Source of the DNA: Candidatus Blackburnbacteria bacterium
Lineage (GTDB): Bacteria > Patescibacteriota > Microgenomatia > UBA8517 > UBA10165
NCBI GenBank assembly: GCA_016183565.1
Contig: JACPEJ010000001.1
Location: 614,479 to 678,478, forward strand
Direction of reading: 5' to 3'
DNA: 64,000 bases
Numbering within the stretch: the first letter of the stretch is position 1; every line of letters starts with the position of its first letter. The notes under the pieces are model-generated. The model had not been told where the DNA came from. It did not search any database and saw only the letters and a program-made list of their open reading frames with translations. Positions 15,251 through 63,973 of the stretch are shown here, piece by piece. The position numbers were made by a program, and so were the translations under genes.

Positions 15251-15263
15251 TACTTTAAAGTGT

Positions 15264-25590: not shown

Positions 25591-25600
25591 TAACCTTAGA

Positions 25601-27915: not shown

Positions 27916-27948
27916 AAGCCAGGTTCTTATTCCACCTCCCGAGTGGAA
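27916..27948 (+). repeat. REP-like element, copy e (divergent 5' half)
   Basis: GAAGCCAGGTTCTTATTCCACCTCCCGAGTGGAA. Confidence 0.65.
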
Positions 27949-28002
27949 ACATATATCTTCTCAAATTTGACTTCTGTGTTTTTACTATATAGAATACTGC
28001 AA

Positions 28003-35492: not shown

Positions 35493-35984
35493 TCAATTCC
35501 TCAACAACACCCTCGTCCTTAAATTTAAGGACGATCGTTCCTCGACCCGGAGAGAAGAACCGGTTTTTTCTGAGAGTGTCATATTTATAAGAACTGCCTT
35601 GGGGTCATTTGAGGGATCACATGTTATGGAGCAGGAGGAAACCAAAACATCACTTGATGTTAACGTATCGCTTCCTGAAGTCACCCGACCATTATTGGTT
35701 CCAATGTCTATACAAGAGAAGGTGGTTGTGGTACCGAGAGGGTTTTTGTAGGTAACAATCTTTTCTGTAGCTTCACAGGAAATAGAGCGAGCATTGTGTA
35801 GTTGTCTCTCCATTGTTGAGATAACGTTTTCTCCATCTCTTTTTACTTTTGCAGTAACTTCACTTTTAGAGGCGCCCTTAAGAGCCGAGAACAGCATTTG
35901 GTTTGCAACCACTAGCACAATACCAAAGATTGTGATTACGACAAGGATTTCTATGAGGGTGAAGCCGTACTTTTTCGTTATCAT
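35493..35984 (-). CDS. Type IV pilin / pseudopilin (prepilin-type N-terminal cleavage/methylation domain)
   Basis: KKYGFTLIEILVVITIFGIV. Confidence 0.7.
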   Translation of the reverse strand: MITKKYGFTLIEILVVITIFGIVLVVANQMLFSALKGASKSEVTAKVKRDGENVISTMERQLHNARSISCEATEKIVTYKNPLGTTTTFSCIDIGTNNGRVTSGSDTLTSSDVLVSSCSITCDPSNDPKAVLINMTLSEKTGSSLRVEERSSLNLRTRVLLRN

Positions 35985-36409
35985 TTTTTCCAGTTAGTTA
36001 AGATCGTAGAAGTTCTTGATTCGTGTGTTCCGCGGCTGTCAGTCCACCCTACTTTTACATCAATCTGCACAGTATCATTGTCAATCCTGGTAAGGGTTGC
36101 TTCGCGTATAAAGGTATCTGCAATTTTGGAGGATTGGGGACAGTTGCCGCTAATGTTTAGAGTTAGAGTTTGCATGCATCGTACCGAACCATCTGCTTTT
36201 GAATAAATATTGTCCCAACCGCCATCTCTTTGCTGCCTGATCCATTCAACTGCTTCTTGACTGTACTTGTTTGCTTGGGCTTCACTTTGCGAAAAGCTAC
36301 TATTGCGGACAGAGAACGTTACGATGCTTACAATTCCTGTTATCAAAAGAGCAAGAACTCCTATGACAACTACCATTTCAATCAAAGTTTGACCGTGCTC
36401 TTTCTTCAT
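35981..36409 (-). CDS. Type IV pilin-like protein
   Basis: HGQTLIEMVVVIGVLALL prepilin N-terminus. Confidence 0.65.
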   Translation of the reverse strand: MKKEHGQTLIEMVVVIGVLALLITGIVSIVTFSVRNSSFSQSEAQANKYSQEAVEWIRQQRDGGWDNIYSKADGSVRCMQTLTLNISGNCPQSSKIADTFIREATLTRIDNDTVQIDVKVGWTDSRGTHESRTSTILTNWKK

Positions 36410-36879
36410 TGTCTTTCTAAAACTCCTTCCTTGCTTAAGGTAGCACTTATGGATCGACCAGAAGATGGCTGGTTAAGTTGAATAGTTAGGTTGCCGGAGA
36501 GATCAGTCCCTTGGGCTAAAACTTTAAAGAGAACCGTGGTTGGAGATGCAGAAAGAGTAATTCCTCCCGGTAAGGTAAATGTTCTGTTTGCAGACTGGAC
36601 AGTTCCCTGACAAACTGCGGCAACTGATAAATTGCCTGAATTCAGAGTAACCCTGTACCCATCAAGTGTATTTGTTCCACAACTTGTTGGCTTTTCGCCA
36701 GAAAGTGCAAATTGGCGGGCAAGGTTTAAATTTGAACGGAGTTCTTTGTATGAATTTTCCAAGGTTTGTCGTCTTGAAAACTCACGATAGCTTGCATAGC
36801 CACCAAAAAATAGAATGGTGGCGATCATAATGGCGATGAGGACCTCGATTAGGGTAAACCCCCTGTGTTTCCATTTCAT
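36406..36879 (-). CDS. Type IV pilin-like protein (ORF open to 36918)
   Basis: HRGFTLIEVLIAIMIA. Confidence 0.7.
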   Translation of the reverse strand: MKWKHRGFTLIEVLIAIMIATILFFGGYASYREFSRRQTLENSYKELRSNLNLARQFALSGEKPTSCGTNTLDGYRVTLNSGNLSVAAVCQGTVQSANRTFTLPGGITLSASPTTVLFKVLAQGTDLSGNLTIQLNQPSSGRSISATLSKEGVLERQ

Positions 36880-37334
36880 GGATTCGTTACTTTGTAGTTG
36901 CAGGTGGAAGTACCGCAATTTTCATTACTCCCATTGCAGTTAACAGTGCCAGATCCTTTTTCCAAATAAGCACAAAGATTGTAGGTTTTTTGGTCACCTG
37001 AGGCGTAGTATTGATATTGATACGAACCACCAGTTAATGGGTCAGCAGGAATAGATGAGAGATAGGTATTTGAGCTTGAACATGTAGATGGTGAACCATC
37101 CCCTACCAGTGGTTGCCCTGCTACAACGGCGCTTCTTGCTGGATAATCTCCGCAGTCGGTTCTGTAGATTTCTAACGCCGAGCGAATTTGTTCTAGGTCT
37201 CCTCTTCTTCTTGCATCTCGCCCCGATTTCCTAACAGAGCTATAAGCAACAGCAGAAAGCCCTATCAAGATACCTATAATAGTGATAACTACAAGAATTT
37301 CGATGAAGGTGAAACCACTTTTTTTCTTTATCAT
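36876..37334 (-). CDS. Type IV pilin (GspG/PilE-like)
   Basis: KKSGFTFIEILVVITIIGIL, then RDARRRGDLEQIRSALEIYRTDCGDYP. Confidence 0.75.
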   Translation of the reverse strand: MIKKKSGFTFIEILVVITIIGILIGLSAVAYSSVRKSGRDARRRGDLEQIRSALEIYRTDCGDYPARSAVVAGQPLVGDGSPSTCSSSNTYLSSIPADPLTGGSYQYQYYASGDQKTYNLCAYLEKGSGTVNCNGSNENCGTSTCNYKVTNP

Positions 37335-37795
37335 ATTGGGCAGCTCCCTCCTGAGACCGAAAAGCCTGTTTGCGATTTTTCACCAGATTTGCCATTAGAA
37401 CACATGACCCAGTAATTAGTCTTTGACTGGAGTTTTGCCCACAGAACCCAGCTTAAACCATTAGCATCCGATTGGTAGCTGTATTGATATGTATTGTCCT
37501 CAGTATATTTTTTATCCTCTAAGCACCCTGACATGTAAGACTCGAGTGGCCCACTGCCACTACACAGAGTATATGCTTTCACTGTTGTCGCTCTGACAGG
37601 GTAGAGTGAGCTGTTCTCTGCTGAATAATTCTCAAGTGCTACTTGATATTGCTTGATATCATTTTTGCGATTTGTGTCATTGCCTTTTTTAATTTGGGCA
37701 ACCGGATCAAATACAGAAATAAGCGTTGCTACTAGAATGCCAATAATTGTTATAACGATTAGGATTTCTACTAGGGTAAAGCCACGTTTATTCAT
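37331..37795 (-). CDS. Type IV pilin-like protein
   Basis: NKRGFTLVEILIVITIIGIL. Confidence 0.7.
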   Translation of the reverse strand: MNKRGFTLVEILIVITIIGILVATLISVFDPVAQIKKGNDTNRKNDIKQYQVALENYSAENSSLYPVRATTVKAYTLCSGSGPLESYMSGCLEDKKYTEDNTYQYSYQSDANGLSWVLWAKLQSKTNYWVMCSNGKSGEKSQTGFSVSGGSCPI

Positions 37796-38198
37796 CCAGC
37801 TTTCCTCCTACTTCCAGATTAGCACTTGTTAAGCCGTAATTACAAGCTACGCCACAATCGCTATCTAGGCCTAAAACAACTTCGGGGTCTTTCTTGTTCT
37901 CAAGTTTTGCGAAAAGTTGATATTTTGAACCATCTTTTGAAGAGCGGTAAGAATACTTGAGTTGGTGGACGGGGTCACTGGGCATTTTTTCTATCACCCC
38001 GGGATATTTGCCATGGGTAGAATGATAGATTTCAAGTTCTTTTTGAATTTGCGAGAGGTCACTCTTGCGTTTTTCGTCTCGGGTTTTGGCTTGGAGCTCT
38101 CGAATATAACTGAGAGCAAAAAAACTAACAATTCCCATCACAAGAAGTACGAGAAGTATTGGTGGATTTGAGTTTGCACCCTGGGATACCTTTTTCAT
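37788..38198 (-). CDS. Pilin-like protein (atypical N-terminus)
   Basis: A hydrophobic N-terminus followed by a GspG-like K/R...DL..I...LE.Y segment. Confidence 0.45.
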   Translation of the reverse strand: MKKVSQGANSNPPILLVLLVMGIVSFFALSYIRELQAKTRDEKRKSDLSQIQKELEIYHSTHGKYPGVIEKMPSDPVHQLKYSYRSSKDGSKYQLFAKLENKKDPEVVLGLDSDCGVACNYGLTSANLEVGGKLDE

Positions 38199-38785
38199 TT
38201 TGCACTATTTGCACTATCGGTGGATTCAGACGCTTGGGTTTTGCGCATAAGGACGACATCTTTTTCGATTGCCTCAAGTTCTTTCTCGACAGGAGTGTCG
38301 CCACTAGCCACACCAAAGTTGCATATTTGAGAACCGCAAGCAAGTTTTCGGCGTGCTACTCCTTCTTTATACTCATCGTCTTTTGAATTTTCCAGATGAG
38401 CAAAAAGTTGAAAGTTTTTCCCATCAGTAACATATAGATAGGAATACTTCTTTCCAGGTGCCAACGGGTCCTCGGGTATTCTATCTATATAAGGAGGATA
38501 GCTTGAATCAGTAATATCTCTTATTCCATCCTTTCCCCACTCGCACGGGCTTGGTTTTTCTATCTCCCCGCAAGCAAAAATTTTTCCATCGCGTGCTGGA
38601 GGATATGAGGCAAAATCATTTAAATACATATTTAAGGCAGTGGCTATATGTTTAAGGTCGTTTTTGCGTTGTACGTCCCGCGCTCGGACTAACGAGGTGC
38701 GGAAATTAAAAAGTGCCAAGCCCCAGATTATTGTGAGGATTAGACCAACCATGAGGATTTCGTTTTTGGTAAAACCCTGTTGCAT
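38195..38785 (-). CDS. Type IV pilin-like protein
   Basis: QQGFTKNEILMVGLILTII, then RARDVQRKNDLKHIATALNMY. Confidence 0.6.
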   Translation of the reverse strand: MQQGFTKNEILMVGLILTIIWGLALFNFRTSLVRARDVQRKNDLKHIATALNMYLNDFASYPPARDGKIFACGEIEKPSPCEWGKDGIRDITDSSYPPYIDRIPEDPLAPGKKYSYLYVTDGKNFQLFAHLENSKDDEYKEGVARRKLACGSQICNFGVASGDTPVEKELEAIEKDVVLMRKTQASESTDSANSAK

Positions 38786-38941
38786 GAGTTTAAAAAATTT
38801 TCAATTTTCAATTCTTAATTTTTATTCAATTTTTAATGACTAAATGTTTACTAATTAGGTTTTAATCTAATTGAGTATGTTAAATTTAAAATTAGATTAT
38901 TTGGATTTGATTAAAAATTTAAAATTTAAAATTCATTTCCT

Positions 38942-39733
38942 TCAGAGGAAATGGTTATACCACCCTACTATCCTATCACTAAAAAATAAACTAATCCAAG
39001 CGCCAAGCAGTAGGAATGGGCCAAAGGCGATGTGTTTTTTCCAAGAGGCTTTGTTTGCTGCTATTAAAAAAAGTCCAACAACTGCTCCTATGGAAAAAGA
39101 AAGCAGAAACCAAATCAGGACTCTCGGGTATCCTAGGAGAGAACCTAAAACGAATGAAAGTTTGACATCACCAAATCCCATCCCACGACCTCTTGTTAAT
39201 ACAAAAATACCCAGGAAGAAACTAAAAGAAATAAGACCCCAAGATATGTGATTGATAAGAGTGGGGGGGGGAGCAAGAAATAAAAACAAAAGTACTGTAA
39301 GACCTAATACTAGAACTAAAATATCAGGCAAAATTTCAAATTCAAAGTCTATTACTATTAGACTTATAAAGATTGCAATAATCATTAGTAAGGCAGGGAG
39401 TGCCGCAAAACCAAGTGTGGTTTTAAAAAGGCTTAAGGATGAATTATTCGTTGAGAAGAATAGGAAGGTTGAGATAACAAATGCTATGCTTGTCAAAGTT
39501 TCGATTACAGGATAACGCAAGCCAATTTTTTTTCCACAGGAAGCGCATTTCCCTCGGAGCAAGATAAAAGAAACAACCGGTATGTTATTAAACCAGCGGA
39601 TTTTTTTGTGACAGTGGTCGCAGACTGACCTTCCGAATATGGAGATTCCACGAGGGATACGGTGGGTGAGCATCCCGATGAAGGAGCCGAGGGCTAGTCC
39701 AAGAAGAGCGAGAATGAGATAGAAAAATGGCAT
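38942..39733 (-). CDS. pilD: Prepilin peptidase (A24 family)
   Basis: An N-terminal Cys-rich zinc-binding segment (CDHC...CASCGKKI), then polytopic TM helices with a GFGDVKL catalytic region. Confidence 0.85.
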   Translation of the reverse strand: MPFFYLILALLGLALGSFIGMLTHRIPRGISIFGRSVCDHCHKKIRWFNNIPVVSFILLRGKCASCGKKIGLRYPVIETLTSIAFVISTFLFFSTNNSSLSLFKTTLGFAALPALLMIIAIFISLIVIDFEFEILPDILVLVLGLTVLLFLFLAPPPTLINHISWGLISFSFFLGIFVLTRGRGMGFGDVKLSFVLGSLLGYPRVLIWFLLSFSIGAVVGLFLIAANKASWKKHIAFGPFLLLGAWISLFFSDRIVGWYNHFL

Positions 39734-39758
39734 GTTGAGAGTAATTTCAAATTAAAAA

Positions 39759-40355
39759 TTACTTTGCTACACAAACATAGCATACATCTTCATCTTCCCA
39801 GGTAACAGTTGATGGACAGCTCTCGAGGGCTCCGGTTAATGGAAAGTTTGTATTTATGTTAATTTTGTAAAGTTCTCCTGTTTTTTTCCTTTCTGTTTCA
39901 GAAGTTGGCACAAAGCAAGCGTAGACAGGCGACTGGCTACCTTGTCCTTTTCCTAGGTATATTGCATCGCTTTTGTCAGCACTGATGTGTTGAGAGGGTA
40001 GTCCAGACGGAATGAGCCCCTCAGTAACCAAAATTCCGGGTTTCGAGCAATCTTCGTTTTCACAAATACCAACCTCAACGTTTGTTGTTTTATGCCAAGA
40101 AAAAGGATTGGCATTGTCTCTGCTGTTGAGATTAGACGACCAGGGAAGTTTACCGCGAGCTATATAGAAATTATTAATCCCCTCGACAATTGTTTCGGCA
40201 TCTTTGGAAAGATTACTATCCCGCTTGAGGCGAACTCCCTCGAAGGGGTCGGTAACGAAAAGTGCCATGGAAACAAGAATAGCAAGAAAGCCAATTGCAA
40301 TAACAAGTTCGATAATAGTAAAACCGTTTCTCAAAAAAGTTGTGAGGCGAAGCAT
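39759..40355 (-). CDS. Type IV pilin-like protein
   Basis: RNGFTIIELVIAIGFLAIL. Confidence 0.7.
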   Translation of the reverse strand: MLRLTTFLRNGFTIIELVIAIGFLAILVSMALFVTDPFEGVRLKRDSNLSKDAETIVEGINNFYIARGKLPWSSNLNSRDNANPFSWHKTTNVEVGICENEDCSKPGILVTEGLIPSGLPSQHISADKSDAIYLGKGQGSQSPVYACFVPTSETERKKTGELYKININTNFPLTGALESCPSTVTWEDEDVCYVCVAK

Positions 40356-40409
40356 ACTCTTAAATAGCTTAAAGAAGAAACCTTATAAAAAGCAAGTAGG
40401 AGAATGTTG

Positions 40410-40901
40410 TTATTCAGGAAGGCAAATAAAACATCCCGCGGAGAGATCTGCCTTTGGGCAACCAGCAGTAGAGCTACCTGTGTTATTCGCATATTTTGCA
40501 TTAGCCCTAAAGGTTTTGGAGATTGGTGCAAAACAAACTGTGGTCAGACCGGAAGTACTATTCTCCGTTACAATAAGACTTGTTAGATTGGTCCTGCTCT
40601 GAAATTGAGTTTTAAGTTCATTTTTGCTTACCAGTTCGGTAATGCCAGCATCAGAGCTTGACATGGCTGTGCCATTAGGCAGAGTCGCCCACGGGCCTTT
40701 TTGAAACGTTGTATAATACCTCTCTACTGCATTCAAAAGTTCGGCAGCATCAGATTTGAGGCCTGTATCCGTACCCTTCCTGATCTGTTCAATTGGGTTA
40801 ATAGCGGAAAGAACGGCAGTTGCCAAAATTCCAATAACTGCAATAACGATAAGAAGCTCAATAAGGGTAAAACCACGAAGTTTTGCGGCAGGTTTATTCA
40901 T
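40410..40901 (-). CDS. Type IV pilin (candidate major pilin)
   Basis: LRGFTLIELLIVIAVIGILA and a C-terminal Cys pair. It is the first pilin gene downstream of pilC. Confidence 0.7.
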   Translation of the reverse strand: MNKPAAKLRGFTLIELLIVIAVIGILATAVLSAINPIEQIRKGTDTGLKSDAAELLNAVERYYTTFQKGPWATLPNGTAMSSSDAGITELVSKNELKTQFQSRTNLTSLIVTENSTSGLTTVCFAPISKTFRANAKYANNTGSSTAGCPKADLSAGCFICLPE

Positions 40902-43213: not shown

Positions 43214-45013
43214 TTATTCCTGTGCTACTCTTAACACCTCTTCTATGGTAGTAATTCCTTCCAAGGCTTTCAAGTATCCATCTTGTTTCATCGTAATCAT
43301 TCCTTCTTCTTTTGCTTGTTTTTCTATGTCGCCAGATGAAGCATGCTCAAGAACAAGTCTTCCTATCTTTTCTGTGATAGGCATTACCTCGTAAATTCCA
43401 ACTCTTCCCATGTATCCAGTATTACCACACTCTGTGTCTCCTTTGCCATGGTAAAGTTTTGTCCCACCTTGTGGATTGTTGGGCCAAAGACTTCCCAGGT
43501 TGCTTTTCATATCTTCTAAGATTTTAGGATCTGGTTCATAGGCCTCTTTGCAGTCTTCGTGGATTTTTCTAACGATTCTTTGGGCAACAATGCATGTAAT
43601 TGTCGACCCAAGGAGAAATGGTTCGGCACCCATATCTAAAAGGCGTGGGAGAACACCCGAGGCGTTTGTTGTATGTAATGTCGAGAAAACTAAATGGCCT
43701 GTTAGCGCAGCTTGGATTGCAAGTCCAGCGGTTTCAGCGTCACGAATTTCACCAACCATGATGATGTTTGGGTCTTGCCTGAGGAATGCGCGCAGCCCCG
43801 TTGCAAAAGTTAGACCCGCTTGTGGGTTAACTTGAACTTGGTTGACTCCGGCTATTTGGTACTCAACGGGATCTTCAAGGGTTACTACGTTTACCCTGGG
43901 TGTGCTAACTTTTGATAAGACGGAGTAGAGGGTTGTGGTTTTACCAGATCCGGTCGGACCACAGACGATGATAATTCCATGTGGTCTTAAAATTGCGTCT
44001 TCTAGATTTTTCAAGGCTCGGCCTCTGAGTCCTAATTCCGGAAGTTTTGGTACTCCGCCTGTTTTTTTAAGAAGACGCATAACGATTTTTTCTCCATGTG
44101 CTGTAGGCAGAGAGGATACGCGCAAGTCCACCTCTTCGCCGCCGGATTTAAAATTAAACCTCCCGTCTTGGGGTACTCTTTTTTCGTCAATTTTCATACC
44201 AGATAGAATTTTTATTCTTGAGATTAGGGAATCATGAAGTTGTTTGGTCATAATAAACTTCTCTTGTAAAATCCCGTCAATGCGGTATCTAACGCGAGTT
44301 GATTTTTCTTCAGGTTCTACATGAATATCTGAAGCGCGCGATTTAACGGCAAAGGTTAAAAGTTCTTTTACAATTTTGGCGATTGGTGCTTCTCTTATGA
44401 CTTGATCTAAGCGAGATAAATCAACAGTGTTGACCCCGCCTTCTGTGGGTTCTGCTTCTTTAATTGCTTCTGTTACACCTCGGCTTAAACCAACTGAATA
44501 TTGTTCTCCGATGACTCTTTCAATCTTTGAAGGAACAGCGGAAACAGGGCGAACGCGCATACCTGTTTTTTGTCTTACAAACTCGACAGCGGTGATATCC
44601 AGAGGATCAGCCATTGCCAGAGTAATTTGTTGAGCGTCTTTGTCAATTGAAATGGGGATAACGTTAAACCTTGAGGCAACTGATTGGGTGAGAGCAGAAA
44701 GTGCTTCGGGAGAAATAGGAGTTTGGTCTAAGTCTATAAAGGGAACGTTGTAAAAAACAGCGCGCGCTTTTGCCATTTGCTCTTCTTTAACCATCCCTAG
44801 CTCTTTTAGTATTTCTTCTTGAGTGCGTCCTGTTTGGAGTTCTTCTAACTTGATCTTTTCTGCGCCTTCTGGCCCTAAGACTCCTTGGGAAACAAGTATA
44901 TCTACAACAGAGGAGGCATCATTGTTGTGGGGAACATCAGGGGTTAAAGTAGCACTGGTTGCAGTTTCGGTCTTACTACTCTTATTTTTACTCGCGGGGG
45001 CAGGCTGGGGCAT
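43214..45013 (-). CDS. pilB: Type IV pilus assembly ATPase PilB (GspE family)
   Basis: 599 aa. An N-terminal GSPII-like domain and Walker A GPTGSGKTTT. Confidence 0.9.
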   Translation of the reverse strand: MPQPAPASKNKSSKTETATSATLTPDVPHNNDASSVVDILVSQGVLGPEGAEKIKLEELQTGRTQEEILKELGMVKEEQMAKARAVFYNVPFIDLDQTPISPEALSALTQSVASRFNVIPISIDKDAQQITLAMADPLDITAVEFVRQKTGMRVRPVSAVPSKIERVIGEQYSVGLSRGVTEAIKEAEPTEGGVNTVDLSRLDQVIREAPIAKIVKELLTFAVKSRASDIHVEPEEKSTRVRYRIDGILQEKFIMTKQLHDSLISRIKILSGMKIDEKRVPQDGRFNFKSGGEEVDLRVSSLPTAHGEKIVMRLLKKTGGVPKLPELGLRGRALKNLEDAILRPHGIIIVCGPTGSGKTTTLYSVLSKVSTPRVNVVTLEDPVEYQIAGVNQVQVNPQAGLTFATGLRAFLRQDPNIIMVGEIRDAETAGLAIQAALTGHLVFSTLHTTNASGVLPRLLDMGAEPFLLGSTITCIVAQRIVRKIHEDCKEAYEPDPKILEDMKSNLGSLWPNNPQGGTKLYHGKGDTECGNTGYMGRVGIYEVMPITEKIGRLVLEHASSGDIEKQAKEEGMITMKQDGYLKALEGITTIEEVLRVAQE

Positions 45014-45118
45014 ACATCCATATTGATATAATTTTTGGTAAAATGCAAGGAAAGCAAGTAACGTCAGACTTTGTTGCTGATGTCACTCTGGGTTACTGGT
45101 GTTACTGATATTACTCCT

Positions 45119-45796
45119 ATGCATGCTTTTTTGATTGTTGGCAAAACAGAAAAAGAACGACAGGGTGCGGTTGTGGAAATTCTTAAACAGAATAAGGTGG
45201 GGGAGACTTTGAGTCTAACTTCTGACAAAGAGGTATATTCTATCTCGAGTGTTCGTAATTTAAATAAAACCCTGCGGCTAAAGACTTTGGACGAAACCAC
45301 AAGAGCGGTTGTTGTGAAAAATGCTCATAGATTGACAACTGAGGCAGCTAATGCTTTTCTTAAAACTTTAGAAGAGCCTACAGCTCATACAATTCTTATT
45401 TTAACCGCACCTAATCAAGATTCTCTACTTCCTACAATAGTCTCACGTTGTCAGGTGGAAAATTTAGGCAATAGTGCTCCCACTTCGGGCAAGAAGGAGG
45501 AGTTGGAAAAACTTGTGAATTCTTCTATCGGAGAAAGACTTATTGTGGCTGAAAAATTTGATGATCGGGAGATGGCTTTAGAGTTTGTAGTAGAACAAAC
45601 GTTTGCTGCACGAGATGTGATGATAAGTTCGGTAAAAACAGATGGGGCTTCAGCTAACACGGCTTCCTGTCTAAAACTACTTAAAGATCTAAAACAGGCT
45701 AAGGATGATTTAGAATCCAATGTTAATGTAAAGTTGGTTCTTGTGAATCTGCTTCTCCAATATCCTATATTCCATTCCACTCCCGATGTGGAATAG
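45119..45796 (+). CDS. holB: DNA polymerase III delta' subunit (short)
   Basis: NAHRLTTEAANAFLKTLEEPTAHTILILTAPNQDSLLPTIVSRCQ. The C-terminal 8 codons are encoded by REP copy f. Confidence 0.65.
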   Translation: MHAFLIVGKTEKERQGAVVEILKQNKVGETLSLTSDKEVYSISSVRNLNKTLRLKTLDETTRAVVVKNAHRLTTEAANAFLKTLEEPTAHTILILTAPNQDSLLPTIVSRCQVENLGNSAPTSGKKEELEKLVNSSIGERLIVAEKFDDREMALEFVVEQTFAARDVMISSVKTDGASANTASCLKLLKDLKQAKDDLESNVNVKLVLVNLLLQYPIFHSTPDVE

Positions 45797-45810
45797 GTTG
45801 ACACGTCGGG
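45768..45810 (-). repeat. REP-like element, copy f (inverted orientation), 5' of the RAYT gene
   Basis: The reverse complement reads CCCGACGTGTCAACCTATTCCACATCGGGAGTGGAATGG. Confidence 0.75.
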
Positions 45811-45837
45811 AGGATTGTTGTAGTGTAATGTTAGTAC

Positions 45838-46512
45838 ATGCCTACTCGGATAATACCTCTCGTAAACGGTGAGTTTTACCATCTTTTTAATCGAGGTGTG
45901 GCGCATCAACCAATTTTTTCTACTAACAGGGATTACCAAAAGTTTTTACTCCCTCTACAATACTATCAGTTACAAACACCACCTGTTAAGCTGTCTCGAT
46001 TTATGCAATTACAAAAGGATGAAAAGGAATACTTACTCAAAGAACTCGAGACGAAGGGAAAGAAATTAGTAAATCTTATCTGCTTTGTTCTAATGCCAAA
46101 TCACTTCCATGCTCTTGCACAACAATCAGTTAACAATGGTATTTCTACTTTTATAAAGAGAGCTACTGATAGCTATGCCCGTTATTTCAACACCAAACAT
46201 GAACGTGTTGGTCCTTTGTTTCAGGGAGCATTTAAGGCGGTAAGAATTACAACGGTTGAGCAATTACTTCATGTGTCAAGATATATACACCTGAATCCAC
46301 TGGTTTCTTTTGTTGTGCGTCAAGAAAACTTCATCCAATATCAGTGGTCATCGCTCCAATACTTCTTACAAGAAAACATTTCTCAGAATATAGTTGACCC
46401 TACTCCTATACTCCAAAATTTCAGTTCTAAGGAAGAATATAAGAAGTTTATATTAGACCACGCTGAATACGCAAAGGAGTTGGAGAAAATTAAGCACATG
46501 GTGATTGATTAA
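45838..46512 (+). mobile_element. REP-associated tyrosine transposase (RAYT; IS200/IS605-like Y1 HUH transposase)
   Basis: YHLFNRGV ... LMPNHFHAL (HUH motif) ... SRYIHLNPL (catalytic Tyr). The gene is flanked on both sides by REP-like elements in opposite orientation. Confidence 0.75.
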
Positions 46513-46513
46513 T

Positions 46514-46549
46514 ACCGATGTGCAAAGCTATTCCACTCCCGATGTGGAA
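46514..46549 (+). repeat. REP-like element, copy g, immediately 3' of the RAYT stop
   Basis: ACCGATGTGCAAAGCTATTCCACTCCCGATGTGGAA. Confidence 0.8.
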
Positions 46550-46676
46550 AGTTTGTGGAAAGTTGCTTTGGGGGCCAGGTTTTTAACCTTCGCTAAGTTT
46601 GCAAAGACTCGCATATCAAGCTATAATTATAGTTAGGAAATGGGGTTTTAAAAGCCCTATTTTTCGTGTTTAGACA

Positions 46677-48581
46677 ATGGCTTCACTTTCCGCAAAAACT
46701 ACCAGTTACACTGCAAAAGACATACAAGTTCTTGAGGGTTTAGAGCCAGTTCGCAAACGTCCTGGAATGTTTATCGGCTCAACTGATTCCCGAGGACTTC
46801 ATCACCTCATCACAGAAATAATTGACAACTCAGTCGATGAAGCTCTAGCAGACCACGCAACTGAAATTTGGGTAAGTCTTAACCCCGATGGGTCAGCAAC
46901 TGTTGAAGACAATGGGCGTGGTATACCTGTTGATAAACACAAGTCAGGAGTTTCAGCTTTAGAGCTTACTATGACAAAGCTCCACGCCGGGGGTAAGTTT
47001 GGAGACTCGGCTTACAAAGTCTCAGGAGGCTTACATGGAGTTGGAGCATCTGTCGTTAATGCACTTTCAGAGTGGCTTGAGGTAGAGGTGCATAGAGATG
47101 GATTCGCCTGGGTACAACGATACAAAAAGGGCGTTCCAGAAAGTGCACCGAAAAAAGGAGAGGCATTAAAGGACACGGGCACTAAGACAACCTTCTTGCC
47201 TGATAAGGCAGTTTTTACTACGACAGATTGGAACAAAAAGATAATCGAGGATTCTATTCGGAATCGTGCTTATCTTATTGCTGGGCTGAAGTTTCATCTT
47301 ACAGATAAGGAGGGTCCTAAAACATTTTACTTTGAAGGAGGTATAAAAAGCCTTGTTGCACACCTGAATAGTGATAGAACCACTCTTTCAAATATAGTTT
47401 ACGTTTCCCGTGAGGGGAATGATATTTCGGCTGAGGTTGCTATTCAATACAACGATGGGATGGGGGAGATGGTTGATTCTTTTGTAAATGTTATAAAGAC
47501 TCCCGATGGTGGGACTCATTTAACTGGTTTCAGGATCGGACTTACGCGCGCAGTTAATGATTATGCGAAAAAGATTGGTGTTACGAAGGAAATAATTGAG
47601 TCAATAAGCGGAGAGGATACACGCGAGGGTTTGACTGCAGTATTATTTGTCAAGATTCCAACCAATAGTATTCAATTTGAATCGCAAACAAAAACAAAAC
47701 TTAATAATCCCGAGGCTCAAGGTTTTGTTGCTCAACTTGTCAAAGAGGGTTTGGACACTTATTTTGAGGAGAACCCAAGCGAGGCGAGACGAATTCTTGA
47801 GAAAATTACATTGGCCACTAAGGCCCGGCTTGCTGCGCGAGCTGCTAAAGATGCGGTTTTGCGCAAAGGCGCGCTCGAGGGGTCAGGTCTTCCTGGGAAA
47901 CTTGCTGATTGTCAAGAGAAAAATCCGGTTTTTAGTGAGTTATTTATCATAGAAGGGGATTCTGCTGCTGGTACGGCAAAAGGCGGAAGGGACCGAAAGT
48001 TTCAGGCAATATTGCCAATTGGGGGGAAAATTCTTAACACGGAACGTGCGCATCTTGACAAAATTGTCAAATTCGAAGAGCTTAAAGATCTTATTATTGC
48101 GTTGGGAGCGGGGATAGGGGACATGGTTAACCTTGATAAACTGCGCTACCACCGAATCATTATTATGACTGATGCGGATGTGGACGGGTCTCACATCGCA
48201 ACTCTTTTGATGACATTTTTTTATCGACATTTCCCCGAAATAGTTCAAAAAGGGTACCTCTATCTTGCTCTTCCGCCACTTTATAAGGTTCAGCTTGGAA
48301 AAGAGATCTTTTATGCCTACAATGAAGAGGAAAAGCAAGAAATACTTACAAGCCATGGCAACGGCAAAGCCACAATCCAGCGCTATAAAGGACTTGGGGA
48401 AATGAACGCAGATCAGCTTAGGGATACGACTATGGATCCTGAGAAGAGGACACTTAAGCAAATTACCATAGAGGATGTTGAACAGACAGATAGAATATTT
48501 AGCACTCTTATGGGAGAGGATGTGCCACAGAGGAAAAAGTTTATACAGACATATGCGAAATTTGCGCAGTTGGATATATAA
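46677..48581 (+). CDS. gyrB: DNA gyrase subunit B
   Basis: GHKL ATPase motifs ([22 protein letters not shown]), Toprim domain (EGDSAGG), and a GyrB tail. Confidence 0.95.
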
Positions 48582-48583: not shown

Positions 48584-50590
48584 ATGGATCCGATATTACT
48601 AATATCAATAGCTGCATCTTTGGTTACACTTATCTATAGTGCTTTCCTGGTAGTGCGCATCTTAAGACTTCCTGCGGGAGATGAGAAAGTACAAGAGATC
48701 GCAAAAGCAATAGCAGAGGGTGCGGCGGCATACCTGGCTCGTCAAAATAAGACCGTTGCAGTTGTTGCCATAGTTCTTACTGCTGTGCTTTGGGCAACAT
48801 TGGGAGTTTATGCGGCAGGTGGATTTTTAATCGGGGCTCTTGCTAGTGTTCTGGCTGGATACAGCGGGATGATGGTGGCTGTAAGAAGCAATTCTCGTAC
48901 AACCGAGGCTGCAAAAAAGGGACTTCCTGAAGCTTTATATGTTGCTTTTCAAGGAGGATCTGTAACCGGACTTATTGTAGGCGGACTTGCACTTTTGTCG
49001 ATTTCGATCGTTATTTTTTTATCTACAGTATTAGGCTTTGAACCAAATATGGCTCTGGTTGCCCTTGGGTTTGGGGGTTCTTTAATTTCAGTATTTGCAA
49101 GATTGGGCGGGGGAATTTACACCAAAGGCGCTGATGTAGGAACAGATATTGTAGGAAAAATCGAGAAGGGAATACCTGAGGATGATCCAAGAAATCCCGG
49201 CGTTGTAGCCGATCTTGTGGGAGACAATGTTGGAGATGATGCGGGAATGGCTGCCGATCTTTTTGAGACTTATGTTGTGACCGCAGTTTCGGCAATTCTT
49301 TTGGGTTCGCTTCTTTTTGGGGGTGGGGCAAATGTCTTGTTTCCACTTTTGGTTTCGGCAATTTCTTTGATCGCTTGCTTAGTTGGTACTTTCTTTGTTC
49401 GTTTATCCAACAGCAAAAGAATTATGCCTGCGCTTTATAAAGGGGTTGGAGCAACGGCTATTTTTGCAACTATTGGAGTAGTGCTGGCACTGAGAATATT
49501 GCCTCCGAACATACCGCAACTTAGTGATTCAAGTATTCTTGGAATTTTTCTAGTTGGGGTAGCCATAACGACTGGAATGATAGTAACTACTGAGTTTTTC
49601 ACTGGTAAAAATTCGGGTCCGGTTCGCAAGGTTGCAGAGGCGGGTGCTTCTGGACATGCGACTAATATAATCGCCGGGCTTGCGCTTTCTATGAAAGCAA
49701 CTCTTTTCCCAATACTGCTTATTGCCGTGGGAATTTTGGCATCATACATACTTGGTGGTCTTTTTGGTATAGCACTGGGAGCGGTAAGTATGCTTTCTCT
49801 AACCGCTATAGTTGTTGCAATTGATGCTTTCGGTCCTATAACGGACAATGCAGGTGGAATAGCTGAAATGTCAGGGCAGAGTGAGTCGGTAAGAAAAGTT
49901 ACGGACTCACTAGATGCTGTGGGTAATACTACTAAGGCAGTTACTAAAGCATACGCTATCGCTTCGGCTGGCCTTGCAAGTCTAGTGCTTTTTGCTGCCT
50001 ACACGGAGGAGTTGGCTAGGCGAGGAATGACAGAATCTTTCTCGCTTTCTGACCCTTATGTTCTTGTTGGTCTTTTCCTTGGCGCTTCTCTGCCATATCT
50101 CTTTGCAGGATTTGCAATGGAAGCTGTGGGGCGGGCAAGCCAAGCTATTGTTGCTGAAATTAGGCGCCAGTTTAAAGAAATAAAGGGAATACTTGCAGGT
50201 ACGGCTCGACCGGAATATGCAAAGTGTGTGGATATTGTTACAAAAGCGGCTTTAAGAGAGATGATAATTCCTGCACTTATTCCAGTTATTACGCCGATTG
50301 CGGTCGGGTTGTTGTTAGGAAGCCGAGCACTTGGTGGACTTTTGATGGGCATTATTATAACCGGTTTGTTTGTTGCAATTTCTATGACAACTGGTGGGGC
50401 TGCGTGGGATAATGCCAAAAAGTATATAGAGGATGGAAATTTGGGAGGTAAAGGTAGTGTTGCCCACCAGTCTGCTGTTACGGGAGATACTGTAGGAGAT
50501 CCTTACAAAGACACGGCAGGGCCCGCGATTAATCCAATGATAAAAGTGGCTAATGTAGTGGCATTATTGCTAGCGCCATTCTTGGTGTAA
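48584..50590 (+). CDS. hppA: Membrane-bound H+/Na+-translocating pyrophosphatase
   Basis: [28 protein letters not shown], and about 15 TM helices. Confidence 0.9.
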
Positions 50591-50673: not shown

Positions 50674-53600
50674 ATGAAAATCGGCAAAGTAATACCAGCT
50701 GAGATAACTCAAGAAATGCATAGAAGCTATCTTGATTATGCGATGTCTGTTATTGTCGCGCGTGCTCTTCCTGATGTTCGGGATGGTTTAAAACCTGTAC
50801 ACCGAAGAATTCTTTTTGCAATGAATGATCTGGGTTTAGCTCCTAGCTCAGCTTACACAAAGTCAGCAAAGGTTGTTGGAGAAACGATGGGTAAATACCA
50901 TCCTCATGGTGATGGACCAATCTATGATGCTCTTGTCCGCATGGCCCAAGACTTCTCGTTGCGCTACCCGCTGGTTGATGGCCAGGGAAACTTCGGCTGT
51001 TTTACTAAAGATACAAAAATTAAACTAACAGATGGTCGCGATATAACCTTCCAGGATCTCATAGTAGAGTACAAGAAAGGTAAAAAGAATTATACCTATA
51101 CCATAAACTCCCAGGGACTGATTAACATTGCAGAAATAAAGCATCCCAGGCTGACAATTAAAAAAACTCAGATCGTAAAAATTACTTTAGACAACGGCAA
51201 GAAAATAAAATGTACACCGAACCACTTATTTATGTTGAAAGACAGAAGCTATAAGGAGGCAGCCAATCTAACGAAAAAAGACTCTCTCATGCCTTTTTAC
51301 CAAAGGCTATCTCAAAACACGGATCGCCTCAATAGGGAAGGCTATGTTCTAATCTTCCAAAATTCAACTGACACGTGGGTGCCCACACATCATCTAGCCG
51401 ACAACTACAACTTAACTCACGGCACATACACAAAAAGCGCAGGAAGAGTGCGACATCACCAAGATTTTAACAAGCTTAATAACAATCCAGACAATGTAAT
51501 CAGAATGGCATGGGAAAACCACTGGAAGATCCATTATGAAAATGCAAAATTGAAACACAAAGACCCTGAATACCGCGAGAAGATAGCAAAAGGCCGGACA
51601 GAATACTGGTCAAATCCTGCCGCACGCGAGAAGCAAGCACTTCGTACGTCAACCATGAACTTCAAGAACTGGCAAAATCCCAAGTATAGGGAAAAAATGA
51701 AAAAATTGTTAAGTGAAGTTAATATTCAATACATTGCTGCACACCCTGAAAAAAGGAAAGAGTTCAGCGAAAGAGCGCACAGAACGCTCAAGAGACTATG
51801 GCAAGATCCAAACTACCGTGCCGCAATGCATGAAAAGATTATTAAAGGCAACAAAAACCACACAATCAACAAGACTGATAGGGTCAAGTTTATAAATATT
51901 TGCAAGGAGGTAACTAAACAGTTTCAATCTCTAGATGAACATAATTACAATCAAGCACGAAGTACCGTTTACCCTTACGGTTCATCTCCCTTTTGGCGAA
52001 CGGGATTGAAAAACTACTTTAATAATGACCCAGATCTCGTAAGACTTGAGATAAACAAGAATCACAAAATCGTGAGTGTAGAAACTCTTGTTAAAAGAGA
52101 GGATGTCTATGATTTAACAATTGACTCAACACATAACTTTGCACTAGCAGCAGGAGTTTTTGTCCACAACTCAGTAGATGGCGACCCCCCGGCAGCTATG
52201 AGATATAGTGAGGTGCGTCCCTCGAAAATTTCTCAGGAATTATTAAAAGATATTGATAAAGGCACCGTAGAATTTGATGATAACTTTGACGGATCTTTGA
52301 AAGAACCAAGATATTTGCCTGCACTCTTGCCTAATCTTCTTTTAATGGGCGCAGAGGGCATTGCTGTGGGTATGGCGACAAAGATTCCGCCTCATAATTT
52401 AACAGAAGTTACAGATGCAATTATTGAAACTATTAAAAAAGGAAAGGTTGTAAGAGAGGGGAATGGAGGAACCCCTAGACCCCCCTTCGACTACGCTCAG
52501 GGTCGCTCAGGACAAGTCCATTCGGCTAGCTCAGGACAAGCGGATGATTTCTTTATAAAAAGGATTGACCTTGCGGTTTCTCAAAATAAGACCAAGGTTA
52601 CAGATACAATAAAAGAGCAAAGCTCTCTTCAACTGCGTATAGAAGCACCAAAAGTCGATTTTGCCTCTGATATAACAATTGAAGAAATAATGGGCTATAT
52701 CAAAGGCCCTGATTTCCCAACCGGAGCTGTAATTTATGGCGGGAAATTGCTTCCGGAGGTTTATAGTTCGGGGCGAGGCAGAATTGTTATCAGAGGTGTT
52801 GCAAAGATTGAAGAAACTGTCCGCGGCAAGACTCGCATTGTTATAACAGAACTGCCATACCAGGTAAACAAGGCGGTACTTGTTGCAAAGGTCGCAGAAC
52901 TTGTTCGCGATAAAAGGATTGTTGGAATCTCGGATCTTCGGGATGAGTCTGACCGACGCGGAATGTCGGTTGTTATAGAGCTTAAAAAAGATGCCCGCCC
53001 CAAATCGGTTCTAAATAACCTCTACAAACACACAGATTTACAAACAACATTCCCAGCAAACTTTGTTGCTCTTGTTGATGGAGTGCCTAGAACTCTAAAT
53101 ATTAAGCAGATTTTGGTCGAATACATAAGACACAGGCAACAAGTAGTAACCAGACGATCGATATTTGAGCTTACAGAAGCAAAGCGACGGGCTCATATCC
53201 TTGAGGGATTGAAGATTGCCCTTGACAATCTGGATGCAGTTATAAAAACAATTCGCGAGAGCAGGGATGGGGAAACTGCGAAAAACAACTTGATAAAGAG
53301 GTTTGGCTTAACCCAAGTTCAGGCAGTTGCCATTCTTGATATGCAACTCAGGCGTCTTTCAGCTTTGGAGCGGGAAAAGATTGAAGAAGAATATAAGAAA
53401 GTTCAAGAGATCATAGATTATTTGACAGATCTCCTACTTCACCCCGAGAAAATTTTGAAAGTCATAGAGGATGAGCTTGGTGCTCTTAAGGAAAAATACG
53501 GAGATGTAAGACAGACCCGAGTTGTGGCGTCTCCAATAGGGGAGATGTCGGAAGAAGATTTGGTTGCAAAAGAAGATGTTGTAATTACTATTACCAAGAC

Positions 53601-54591
53601 AGGATATATAAAACGGGTTCCACCAAACACATATCGGCAACAGAGGCGAGGAGGGAAGGGAGTAGTGGGTATGACAACAAAAGAGGAAGATGAGATAGCT
53701 TCTCTTCTTTCCGCTTCTACGCATGATAGTCTTATGTTTTTTACTAACAAAGGTCGTGTCTTTGGTTTGCGGGTTTGGGAAATTCCTGAAAGCTCCCGAC
53801 AGTCCAAGGGACAAGCAGTTGTTAACCTTATTAACATCGATCAGGGGGAAAGGGTAGAATCGGTTTTATCTTTGGAGAAAGAGAGTGGTGTTAAGTATTT
53901 AATTCTTGCAACCCGAGACGGTGTAATTAAAAGAACATCTATTGAGCAGTTCAAGAACTTGCGTTCCGGAGGCTTAATTGCGATTAGACTTGACAAGAAT
54001 GACTCTTTGGCTTGGGTAAGACCAACGGATGGCAAGAGTCATGCGATTCTTGTAACTAAGAAGGGTAAGTGCATTCGTTTTGCGGAAAGTGATGTTCGGC
54101 CAATGGGAAGACCAACGCGGGGAGTGCGAGGGATTCAGCTACATGACGGAGATCAGGTTGTTGGCATGGAAGTTGTTCCGGAAAAACCAGAGACAACAAC
54201 AGACAAGAGACGGAAATTGTTTAGGAATATACTTGTTGTTATGGAAAAGGGTCTCGGGAAAAGAACTCCGATCCAATATTTCCCCTTGCAGAAACGAAGC
54301 GGGATGGGGGTTAAAGTTGCTGAGTTGACGGACAAAACAGGAGATGTGGCAGCAGCGCTTTTGGTAACACAGGAGATTCCTGAGGTTTTGATTACGAGTA
54401 AAACCGGGCAGGTGATTAAACTTCCTTTGAAGAATATTCCGCAATTGGGCAGAGCTACTCAGGGGGTAATTCTAATGCGCTTTAGTGATAAGGCCGATCA
54501 GGTTGCGGCAGTTGCGACACTTGAGAAAGACGGGGGAGAGGAAGAAACACCTGTGACAGAGACTTCAGAAGAAGCTCCTGAGGTAAACTAG
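50674..54591 (+). CDS. gyrA: DNA gyrase subunit A, interrupted by an in-frame intein
   Basis: The extein reads ...[12 protein letters not shown]|[16 protein letters not shown]... An intein lies between the two halves. GyrA beta-pinwheel repeats follow. Confidence 0.9.
50998..52170 (+). mobile_element. GyrA intein (391 aa) with a putative HNH-type homing endonuclease domain
   Basis: Starts at Cys ([13 protein letters not shown], block A). Block B is CTPNHLFML. Ends ...[12 protein letters not shown], followed by a Ser +1 nucleophile. The middle part carries THH...N...NHWKIH and no LAGLIDADG motif. Confidence 0.8.
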
Positions 54592-54600: not shown

Positions 54601-54671
54601 TCCCGAGGTGCCAACCCCAGTAGTACAACATTGTTGACTACGGGGCAGGCGTATTCCACCTCCCAGGTGGA
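54601..54671 (+). repeat. REP-like element, copy h, with a 35-nt inserted hairpin
   Basis: TCCCGAGGTGCCAA[CCCCAGTAGTACAACATTGTTGACTACGGGGCAGGC]GTATTCCACCTCCCAGGTGGAAT. Confidence 0.7.
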
Positions 54672-54758
54672 ATTTAGTGCATCTTACTATTCGGAGTAGT
54701 TTGATTAGAATGAGTGCCTTGGGTTAGCGTTCGCTCAACCATATACGCAGCAGGAGTA

Positions 54759-63120: not shown

Positions 63121-63165
63121 TCAAAGGTAGCACAGGTAGTACAGGTAGTACAAGTAGTATAGGGG
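63121..63165 (-). repeat. 9-bp tandem repeat (GGTAGCACA-GGTAGTACA-GGTAGTACA-AGTAGTATA), second copy of the family seen at 15215-15250
   Basis: On the minus strand it reads CTACTTGTACTACCTGTACTACCTGTGCTAC, directly downstream of the rluA stop. Confidence 0.6.
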
Positions 63166-63220: not shown

Positions 63221-63973
63221 CTAGAGCAGTAAGACATCCTCTAGTTCTTTGGGTAATGGTGCTTCTATGGTTATGTGTTTTTCAGTTACCGGGTGGGTGA
63301 ACGTAAGGCTTTTGGCGTGCAGGAAGAGCCTTGGGCACCATTCTCTGTCTCGTCTTGCGGTTTTTCTCCCTGCATAAAGTATATCTCCTACCACAGGATG
63401 ACCAATGTGTTTTAGGTGAACTCTGATCTGGTGAGTTCGGCCGGTTTTTGGATAGAGCTCAAGCAGGGAAAGCGAGGTTGTAGGTTGTAGGTTGTAGGTT
63501 GTAGGTTGTAGGTTGTAGGTTGTAGAAATTTGGCTTGCCAGTTGATTGATCAACGACTTGACTATGTACAGTGTTTTTGCCTCTCGCCCGTCTTTCAATA
63601 CACCAAATCTTGTTCTTTTCCAAGGAAGCCGACCGACAGGCGCGTTGATTGTCCCTTCAGTTGGTTCTACTCTGCCATGAACTAACGCTACATAGCCCTT
63701 CTCTACTCCCCGTTCTTTAAACTGCTTTTGCAAATTTTCAAAAACCTCCGGAGTTTTAGCAATAAGCAATACGCCGCTTGTTTCTTTGTCTAATCTGTGG
63801 ACTAGCCCGTTTCGCATTTCAAAGTCATGTGCTAGTGGAAAATTGAAATTCGTATCAATCCAATCCTGAAGGGTTTCATCCTCTGTCGCAAAACCTCGGT
63901 TTACAACCATTCCGGAGGGCTTGTTAATAGCAAGTAGATAGTCGTCTTCAAACAATATATGTGGTTGAATCAT
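63221..63973 (-). CDS. RluA-family pseudouridine synthase carrying an in-frame heptanucleotide-repeat insertion
   Basis: ETSGVLLIAKT, HQIRVHLKHIGHPVVGD. The inserted peptide TTYNLQPTTYNLQPTT is encoded by (GGTTGTA)8 at 63475-63530. Confidence 0.75.
   Translation of the reverse strand: MIQPHILFEDDYLLAINKPSGMVVNRGFATEDETLQDWIDTNFNFPLAHDFEMRNGLVHRLDKETSGVLLIAKTPEVFENLQKQFKERGVEKGYVALVHGRVEPTEGTINAPVGRLPWKRTRFGVLKDGREAKTLYIVKSLINQLASQISTTYNLQPTTYNLQPTTSLSLLELYPKTGRTHQIRVHLKHIGHPVVGDILYAGRKTARRDREWCPRLFLHAKSLTFTHPVTEKHITIEAPLPKELEDVLLL
63475..63530. repeat. Heptanucleotide tandem repeat (GGTTGTA) x8 inside the rluA CDS
   Basis: Seen directly: ggttgtaggttgtaggttgtagg... Confidence 0.9.

Follow-up and report, generated by a model that had tools for sequence, protein, structure and literature searches.

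A REP-associated tyrosine transposase-like gene flanked by inverted GTAG-less palindromic repeats in a Candidatus Blackburnbacteria genome

Repetitive extragenic palindromic (REP) sequences and their REP-associated tyrosine transposases (RAYTs) are the best-studied case of a transposase long kept by bacteria together with a tiny repeat family, and they are known mainly from Proteobacteria and Cyanobacteria. Here we analyse 64,000 nucleotides of a genome of Candidatus Blackburnbacteria bacterium, a member of the candidate phyla radiation (CPR), taken from assembly GCA_016183565.1 (contig JACPEJ010000001.1, positions 614,479 to 678,478 of the forward strand; hereafter the window, numbered from its first letter). 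In this window, a gene for a RAYT-like Y1/HUH enzyme of 224 amino acids (45838..46512, + strand, ATG start, TAA stop) lies between inverted copies of a 38-nt palindromic repeat that recurs at six further places. The locus departs from the canonical system: its RAYT is subclass 2.1-like, and the accompanying repeat family, genuine and found in CPR genomes, lacks GTAG. The gene and the repeat probably constitute a REPtron-type system, that is, a (semi-)domesticated Y1/HUH single-strand DNA transposase with its cognate short palindromic repeat.

Among described enzymes, class 2 TnpAY1 proteins (RAYTs in the broad sense) are distinguished by a Y---NP tyrosine motif from the IS200 transposases, which have Y---Q; they are also characterized by few copies per genome and low identity between those copies (PMC6006769). 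Subclass 2.1 carries the signature NH[YF]H, FQ, Y[IV]HLNP and a tail with SS, at a median length of 238 amino acids (Table 1, PMC6006769); it corresponds to RAYT Group 1 (PMC5581495) and largely to TIRYT/TIRtron (PMC3733652), and has been reported without REP-like sequences nearby (Quentin et al. 2018, PMC6006769), in a paper that does not mention Patescibacteria or CPR. The 16-mers flanking Group 1 genes were found to be only modestly repeated, with about 12 occurrences (Bertels et al. 2017, PMC5581495), and the long inverted repeats with a GGGGWSAS motif described by Di Nocera et al. (2013, PMC3733652) form families that are only moderately abundant. No description of REP/RAYT systems in CPR was found in a literature search that was itself partial in coverage.

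The gene encodes a REP-associated type of Y1/HUH tyrosine enzyme whose catalytic motifs are intact. A preliminary description of this DNA, made from the letters and their translations, had claimed the hallmarks of an HUH tyrosine transposase for the open reading frame (ORF), and all three motifs that it named are present: FYHLFNRG at residues 13–20, PNHFHAL at residues 87–93, in which H89/H91 form the HUH motif, and YIHLNPL at residues 149–155, in which Y149 is the catalytic tyrosine and N153-P154 complete Y---NP. The protein also contains GPLFQG, with the FQ motif, and a WSS tail motif at residues 170–172. Across an alignment of 30 family sequences, Y14, H15, N18, G20, N88, H89, H91, Q129, Y149, N153 and P154 are invariant. 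Pfam PF01797 (Y1_Tnp), set beforehand as the check on this assignment, matches the enzyme at 32.6 bits (gathering cutoff 23) and exceeds its cutoff in 30 of 30 aligned relatives. The top NCBIfam match is REP_Tyr_transpos (NF047646, an equivalog), with 46.8 bits (E 2.6e-12) against a curated RAYT cutoff of 80.

The presence of a REP/RAYT system in CPR had been put forward as unusual; the host is indeed a CPR genome, but the protein family is not rare there, with 6332 homologs in a 90% cluster database, nearly all of 221–225 amino acids, and 297 clusters at E <= 1e-30 in an exhaustive search of 50%-identity representatives. The nearest homologs from other genomes are ~60% identical, and relatives with the invariant catalytic residues share 53–61% identity at 221–225 amino acids; no relatives were found on the viral contigs of IMG/VR. 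A database record labelled ‘transposase’ (P0001), from a Candidatus Blackburnbacteria metagenome-assembled genome (MAG), is 100% identical to the enzyme and is called from Met56, at 169 amino acids. This call omits 45838–46002 and with it the N-terminal strand bearing the invariant YHxxNRG motif; the full 224-amino-acid ORF agrees in length with thousands of homologs.

Searches of PDB sequences returned nothing with the single enzyme sequence and only marginal matches with a profile, and we therefore relied on fold comparison. The AlphaFold model of the enzyme (predicted local distance difference test score of 88.6), in which the C-terminal tail is helical, agrees with solved Y1/HUH family members and is nearer to TnpA-REP than to IS608 TnpA. 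In the profile alignment to 4er8, PNHFH falls on PEHMH, FQ on WQ and YIHLNP on YIYINP.

Set beside the described families, the enzyme resembles subclass 2.1, Group 1 and TIRYT in its NHFH, FQ, YIHLNP and WSS motifs and its length of 224 amino acids, the subclass being assigned by motif signature alone. It differs from subgroup 2.1.2, whose helix-turn-helix-like C-terminal domains (Bac_DnaA_C, HTH_23 and HTH_28) were undetected by Pfam at E <= 1 in the 30 members considered here. With the Escherichia coli REPtron (TnpA-REP/YafM, Group 2, subclass 2.2; Ton-Hoang 2012; Messing 2012, PDB 4ER8) the locus shares the fold of the enzyme and the placement of its gene between inverted repeats, but the sequence similarity is marginal (profile E 0.017), FQ replaces the WQ in the GTAG-contacting region of 4ER8, and the enzyme has ~60 extra C-terminal residues. 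The transposases of IS200/IS605 elements (IS608 and ISDra2) have Y---Q and 130–150 amino acids, as against Y---NP and 224 amino acids here. Those elements are, moreover, usually multi-copy and often accompanied by tnpB, whereas tblastn gives a single match to the enzyme gene in the 64-kb window, with neither gene fragments nor tnpB, and the neighbours of the gene are a DNA polymerase III delta'-like (holB-like) gene (45071–45796) and gyrB (46677–48581).

The repeat was delimited by two approaches that agree. A repeat finder groups eight sites, copies a to h. The same eight, and nothing else convincing, are returned when the window is searched without filters using a covariance model of 49 arm-plus-hairpin elements, of which 5 come from the window and 44 from other genomes; the elements of the model were all selected for the TTCCAC/GTGGAA stem, so that other stem types are under-detected. 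Five matches (a, b, d, f and g) are full length, with E-values of 1e-11 to 1e-14, and the 19-mer TTCCACTCCCGATGTGGAA has three exact occurrences in the window, with none expected from 100 shuffles. Read arm first, the unit consists of the arm TCCCGRNGTG, 7–9 nt, (A)TTCCAC, a loop of 7 nt and GTGGAA(T). The arm box recurs in the loop together with the initial bases of the 3' stem (in copy d, both read CCCGATGTG); the 10-nt box TCCCGRNGTG occurs twice per unit, in direct orientation and ~24 nt apart, and its second occurrence closes via CAC...GTG. In 50 elements drawn from many genomes, the agreement between arm and loop is 4.78 of 7, compared with 4.44 when shuffled (s.d. 0.08), a value reached by 1 in 10000 shuffles; this co-variation is modest and its calculation ignores relatedness. 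Folding of the units as single-stranded DNA gives z-scores between -2 and -4. Immediately 5' of the stem, one strand has AGCT or a variable tetranucleotide, and the opposite strand has CTGG, TTCC or the like.

Rfam matches only tRNA in the window, leaving the repeats unmatched, and a terminator scan reports 0 sites around the enzyme gene, with no T-run past the hairpins; the repeats therefore belong to no known RNA family and are not terminators of the classic kind. An anti-Shine-Dalgarno-like role of the loop CACCTCC, which is found in copies a, b and h, was considered and dropped, as copies d, f and g lack CACCTCC. Another property of the unit is a tandem duplication of the outer half-stem directly past the hairpin: 17 of 66 elements have one, including copies a, d, f and g of the window, and on the arm side it is seen in 4 of 66. 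The same duplication occurs in loci that were fetched by protein (loci and contigs from outside the window are given by L numbers): at 9870–9950 of L118, where it is repeated up to five times, at 1340–1400 of L119 and at 9918–9958 of L120. In these three loci and in the window (2107–2132 and 46543–46564), the multiplication is always directed away from arm and gene.

Two complete copies enclose the enzyme gene. Copy f (45774–45811, - strand; 46.4 bits) lies upstream. Its hairpin ATTCCAC-TCCCGAT-GTGGAAT spans 45774–45794 and is preceded by an additional half-stem TTCCA at 45770–45774; its gene-proximal arm CACGTCGGGA (45802–45811) ends 26 nt ahead of the enzyme ATG, and the stop codon of the holB-like ORF (TAG, 45794–45796) falls inside the copy, which as single-stranded DNA folds at -10.6 kcal/mol (z -3.0). 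Copy g (46513–46550, + strand; 48.1 bits) lies downstream, with the arm TACCGATGTG running from the first base past TAA, the spacer CAAAGCT and the hairpin ATTCCAC-TCCCGAT-GTGGAAA, whose 3' half-stem duplicate (GTGGAAAGTTT GTGGAAAGTTG) extends to 46564. The arm of copy f is inverted relative to that of copy g, and the loop TCCCGAT is the same on the + strand in both. Copy f looks like the hairpin and right arm of a full palindrome and copy g like its left arm and hairpin; full two-armed palindromes are found in other genomes (L003, L044, L062, L097, L100 and L109). Both flanking copies were matched by the covariance model, which bears out the inverted arrangement of f and g proposed in the preliminary description, as does the position of copy g for its proposed closeness to the stop codon.

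The upstream unit also carries a promoter-like site of the RAYT gene (45798..45826, + strand), composed of a TTGACA -35 box and a weak -10 box. The -35 box (45798–45803) sits at the spacer/arm junction of copy f, and copy f departs from copies a, b, d and g exactly where TTGACA arises (GTGTCAAC versus GTGCAAAG). After a 17-nt spacer follows the -10 box TAGTGT (45821–45826), which ends 11 nt ahead of the enzyme ATG; a simple promoter scan does not list the site because this -10 box has only 3 of 6 matches. Of 13 homolog loci, 9 read exactly TTGACA at the junction of spacer and upstream arm, with TAnnnT 16–17 nt downstream, the latter hexamer ending 6–12 nt before the start; in 3 others the match is 5 of 6 or weaker, and L048 lacks such a site near its start. 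No Shine-Dalgarno sequence stands ahead of the enzyme ATG, and since none follows the promoter-like site, the enzyme gene would appear to have a near-leaderless mRNA. The missing Shine-Dalgarno sequence may also explain the miscall of P0001.

The six solo copies, all on the + strand, are dispersed over the window away from the gene. Copy a (2082–2119; 57.4 bits) is complete and intergenic, and its 3' half CCAGGTGGAATA is in tandem duplicate, reaching ~2132; the copy is identical in 3–4 kb Logan contigs of the same species, L115 (SRR12113430) and L116 (SRR12113420), and the same species is also present as the 3–4 kb Logan contig L117 (SRR12113384). Copy b (10443–10480; 54.2 bits), likewise complete, stands in frame inside a Mur ligase gene (9258–10670), where it is translated as SRRAKLFHLPGGI in a loop of the C-terminal domain (residues 396–408); the orthologous Mur ligase of L106 differs at this position, where its segment is unrelated in sequence and of another length. 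Copy d (25600–25637; 50.3 bits) is complete and lies 10 nt past the tyrS stop and 161 nt ahead of recG. Copy e (27928–27949; 23.3 bits) consists of the hairpin only (TTCCAC-CTCCCGA-GTGGAA), without the arm, 63 nt past the recG stop.

The remaining two copies are composite. Copy c (15561–15633; 17.5 and 8.7 bits for its two halves), 48 nt upstream of thrS, comprises the arm CCCCGACGTGCAAAC and first half-stem, ~30 nt with two small GC hairpins, and then the terminal hairpin. Copy h (54601–54673; 26.9 and 13.6 bits), 9 nt past the gyrA stop and between convergent genes, comprises the arm TCCCGAGGTGCCAA, a hairpin insert of 31 nt (CCCCAGTAGTACAACATTGTTGACTACGGGG) and, last, the terminal hairpin ATTCCACC-TCC-CAGGTGGAAT. 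A second repeat family made up of the inserts of copies c and h was considered and rejected, the insert of h being unique in the window and that of c having one compensated relative at 13820–13836. The perfect small hairpins at 13820–13836 (GCCAAGTCTGACTTGGC) and 15601–15617 (GGCAAGTCTGACTTGCC), the latter being one insert of copy c, differ by a compensated pair swap. In addition, a 15-nt REP hairpin core with the canonical loop, CCACTCCCGAGGTGG, lies at 7685–7699 within ORF 7123–7890 (16.3 bits, E 0.005) and may be a decayed intragenic copy or a chance match.

All six further copies that had been noted were recovered by the model, and five of the eight copies lie in sense orientation 0–63 nt downstream of, or across, a + strand stop codon; the statement that the dispersed copies stand at gene ends fails for copy b, inside the Mur ligase gene. 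A very high REP density had also been claimed. Eight copies in 64 kb correspond to one per 8 kb, which is about the REP density of E. coli and hence ordinary. The proposed check for inverted pairs, or bacterial interspersed mosaic elements, turned up no doublets in the window save the pair around the gene.

The association between gene and repeat recurs in other genomes. The hairpin pattern ATTCCACYYCCSRDGTGGAA, scanned in one genome per species, matched at least 105 stretches, of which ~50 would be chance matches by estimate. Among the matches listed, about half have the arm at the right distance, though the pattern did not demand an arm; these arm-bearing matches are mostly labelled Microgenomates (Woese-, Gottesman-, Davies-, Roizman-, Levyi- and Chisholmbacteria) or other Patescibacteria, and also include several MAGs labelled Gammaproteobacteria. 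An enzyme homolog is encoded in 11 of the matches listed (as 8-kb loci), ten of them at 44–53% identity and L059 at 28%, and in most of these 11 an element lies within 60 nt of the homolog start or stop. A metagenome scan with arm and hairpin together gave 5 loci, none from the source organism, and in one of them (L111) the homolog ends ~10 nt from the element. Because the sample obtained in this way is biased by the hairpin search, five loci were fetched via the protein alone (L106, L109, L118, L119 and L120), and inverted CAC...GTG hairpins stand on both sides of the gene in all five, with a recognizable upstream arm ending 18–30 nt ahead of the ATG in four.

The layout that is kept is hairpin, spacer, arm, gene, arm, spacer, hairpin, with the arms inside and the hairpins outside. 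The flanking repeats are inverted as in the window in L021, L026, L061, L082, L103, L105, L106 and L109, the exception being L048, whose flanking units are in direct orientation. Stems vary by lineage yet stay complementary (TTCCAC/GTGGAA, ACACTC/GAGTGT, CACCC/GGGTG and CACCT/AGGTG); those of the five protein-fetched loci (ACACTC/GAGTGT, ACAC/GTGT and CACCT/AGGTG) are unlike the stems of the window. An 8-kb stretch of L008 contains two RAYT paralogs, with a separate repeat type for each. Altogether, the same elements stand beside the start and/or stop of the homolog in 16 further distinct loci of other genomes, and the association of gene and repeat is therefore not local chance. L008 (CAYHQC010000001.1), L048/L065 (CAYIXE010000009.1) and other MAGs are labelled uncultured Gammaproteobacteria; they share the arm-plus-hairpin repeat with Patescibacteria and have a RAYT that is 45–47% identical.

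The extent of dispersal differs between these genomes. Counted per 8 kb, L051 contains four elements and L033, L068 and L072 three each, while in L106, L109 and L120 the 10 kb to each side of the gene contain the two flanking copies and no others. The window genome belongs to the subset in which the flanking element has multiplied, and dispersal is not constant across the family. The enzyme gene is not syntenic either: a block of Mur ligase, trigger factor and DUF5660 genes is common to L106 and the window (9258–12295), and the RAYT of L106 lies beside it, whereas that of the window lies between holB and gyrB. GC skew is positive in 16 of 16 bins of the window, giving the + strand a leading-strand composition, and the arm-then-hairpin strand is the + strand in 7 of 8 copies. 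This bias agrees with a use of the lagging-strand template such as is known for IS608-type elements, although it is confounded with gene orientation and not significant alone.

Compared with the repeats of known systems, the elements at this locus are of mixed resemblance. As in TIRtrons, inverted non-GTAG elements flank the gene, and three relatives have only the two local copies. By contrast with subclass 2.1 as described, however, the elements beside the gene here include a hairpin and form a dispersed repeat family, in the window as in some other Microgenomates (3–4 per 8 kb), and the GGGGWSAS motif of the TIRYT main group (GGGG[AT][CG]A[CG]) is in neither flank, the arms reading CACGTCGGGA and TACCGATGTG. 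Whereas E. coli REPs have GTAG and a long bulged stem, the repeat here combines a stem of 6–7 bp and a loop of 7 nt with a separate arm of 10 nt, and the unpaired 5' GT[AG]G at the hairpin foot of the canonical REP is absent. REPtron repeats are dispersed genome-wide, typically in more than 100 copies, and six solo copies are found here in 64 kb. The locus is like the REPIN-RAYT systems of Pseudomonas (Group 3; Bertels and Rainey 2011) in combining an enzyme gene, here in one copy in 64 kb, with a cognate palindromic repeat family and, in L008, paralogous enzymes each with its own repeat type; the mobile unit in Pseudomonas, however, is an inverted REP doublet, and the window has no doublets except the pair around the gene. 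The end hairpins of IS200/IS605 elements share one strand, whereas the ends here are inverted, except in L048. The canonical REP/RAYT architecture proposed in the preliminary description is accordingly retained in part: a Y1 enzyme, inverted flanking repeats and dispersal are present, whereas the RAYT score is below its cutoff, GTAG is missing and the enzyme bears the subclass 2.1 signature.

A mechanism can be envisioned by analogy with E. coli TnpA-REP and IS608 TnpA, and single-strand binding, the chemistry and site of cleavage, and present-day mobility of the enzyme or the repeat are all proposed on that basis. The enzyme would bind to the folded, single-stranded form of the repeat, for instance on the lagging-strand template, and would recognize this fold together with the 10-nt box; this box, and not a GTAG tetranucleotide, is likely to be the recognition or cleavage determinant. 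Tyr149 would then cut next to the repeat, with a metal held by His89/His91, followed by rejoining. The 38-nt units would in this way be copied or moved, and would persist where they are tolerated, that is, after stops, in spacers and, once, in a protein surface loop. The gene may be expressed from a promoter in its own upstream repeat. Since the -35 box of the gene lies within the upstream unit, enzyme binding to the repeat would repress synthesis of the enzyme, and autoregulation of this kind is possible.

Several points weigh against a REPtron-type system. None of the eight copies has a GT[AG]G tag, the RAYT score of the enzyme falls short of its cutoff, and the -10 box in the window is weak. 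The copies in the window are all single units, with a second arm or an inverted partner nearby in 0 of the 6 solo copies, and in Pseudomonas REP singlets are thought to be immobile remnants, according to a passage of PMC3337134. The extent of the source genome examined for copies is 64 kb, three relatives have flanking copies alone, and the limits on the strand bias and on the arm/loop co-variation given above apply here too.

An alternative, which we consider unlikely, is that the 780-bp unit of repeat, gene and repeat is an autonomous, IS200/IS605-like insertion sequence (IS) that continues to move in one piece, with an undomesticated enzyme, the solo repeats being footprints or akin to miniature inverted-repeat transposable elements. 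Terminal elements bound the gene at the loci examined, and those of L048 are direct like the ends of IS608, but the tyrosine motif is the class 2, RAYT-like Y---NP and not the Y---Q of IS200 transposases, and the fold is nearer to TnpA-REP than to IS608 TnpA. An IS might also be suspected from the differing position of the gene in L106 and the window, and from the IS-like character of Group 1, which in this respect ranks behind only Group 6 among RAYT groups and includes 6.3% near-identical duplicates as well as some plasmid-borne copies (PMC5581495); the gene nevertheless has one copy in 64 kb, without tnpB or fragments, solo repeats outnumber it six to one in the window, its best matches in other genomes, at ~60% identity, include no near-identical copies indicating recent spread, and no relatives were found on viral contigs.

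More improbable still is that the repeats are mainly host regulatory elements, acting as protein-binding sites or as RNA 3'-end hairpins by which transcripts are stabilized or terminated, with the Y1 neighbourhood secondary. The lack of a T-run, of terminator sites around the gene and of any Rfam match, together with the short stems of 6–7 bp, speaks against this even though 5 of 8 copies follow or cross + strand stops in sense and REPs elsewhere are reported, in a section of PMC3733652, to function in mRNA stabilization and termination. A -35-like TTGACA on the reverse strand of the arm would suit a regulatory element, but one copy inside a coding region and two split by inserts are better explained by insertion events, and without the enzyme it would be difficult to account for the tight, oriented flanking of a Y1 gene at 17 distinct loci. 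A host regulatory role is compatible with a REPtron-type system as a secondary, co-opted role. The idea that the repeats are chance similarity or low complexity, and the ORF a decayed transposase remnant, might draw on the partial copies c, e and h, but it is ruled out by the shuffles (three exact 19-mers versus 0), by the five full-length covariance-model matches and by a full-length ORF that retains every residue invariant in its family, which numbers several thousand members.

Beyond the RAYT locus, the window contains other features of note. A 55-nt repeat occurs four times on the - strand (35912, 37262, 37729 and 40820) within 35912–40874, at the starts of small ORFs that adjoin a T2SSE/PilB ATPase gene (43214–45013), and probably represents the conserved N-termini of pilins in a type IV pilus cluster. 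The gyrA ORF (50674–54591, 1305 amino acids) has an intein inside it (Pfam Intein_splicing, residues 119–499), and an H+-pyrophosphatase gene (48584–50590) stands between gyrB and gyrA. A tandem run of the heptamer AGGTTGT lies at 63475–63525, and a 34-nt inverted match of 94% connects 15223–15256 with 63124–63157.

We tentatively raise the further possibility that the locus belongs to an undescribed REP/RAYT lineage, widespread in Microgenomates and other Patescibacteria and present also in MAGs labelled Gammaproteobacteria, which would be defined by the duplicated box, by a repeat sequence that hardly changes between enzymes of only ~45% identity, and by the arm promoter. If this is true, the arm promoter would make for a self-limiting partnership of enzyme and repeat, the supposedly ‘REP-less’ enzymes of Group 1 and subclass 2.1 would drive repeat families after all, and cut-and-rejoin chemistry would have left the half-stem duplication (17 of 66 elements) as its footprint. 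On the practical side, which is modest, short-read assemblies of these genomes are probably interrupted at the repeats, and the NCBI call of the gene is truncated. The conserved short repeat and the 224-amino-acid enzyme would offer a compact in vitro system for studying how Y1 enzymes choose their cleavage sites. For Group 1/subclass 2.1, the largest RAYT group, a repeat partner that convinces has so far been missing; the present locus, along with its relatives, suggests that there is one, with a recognition logic of a duplicated 10-nt box and a short hairpin in place of GTAG, in a system that thrives in some of the smallest and most streamlined bacterial genomes, where selfish or costly DNA would be expected to be purged.

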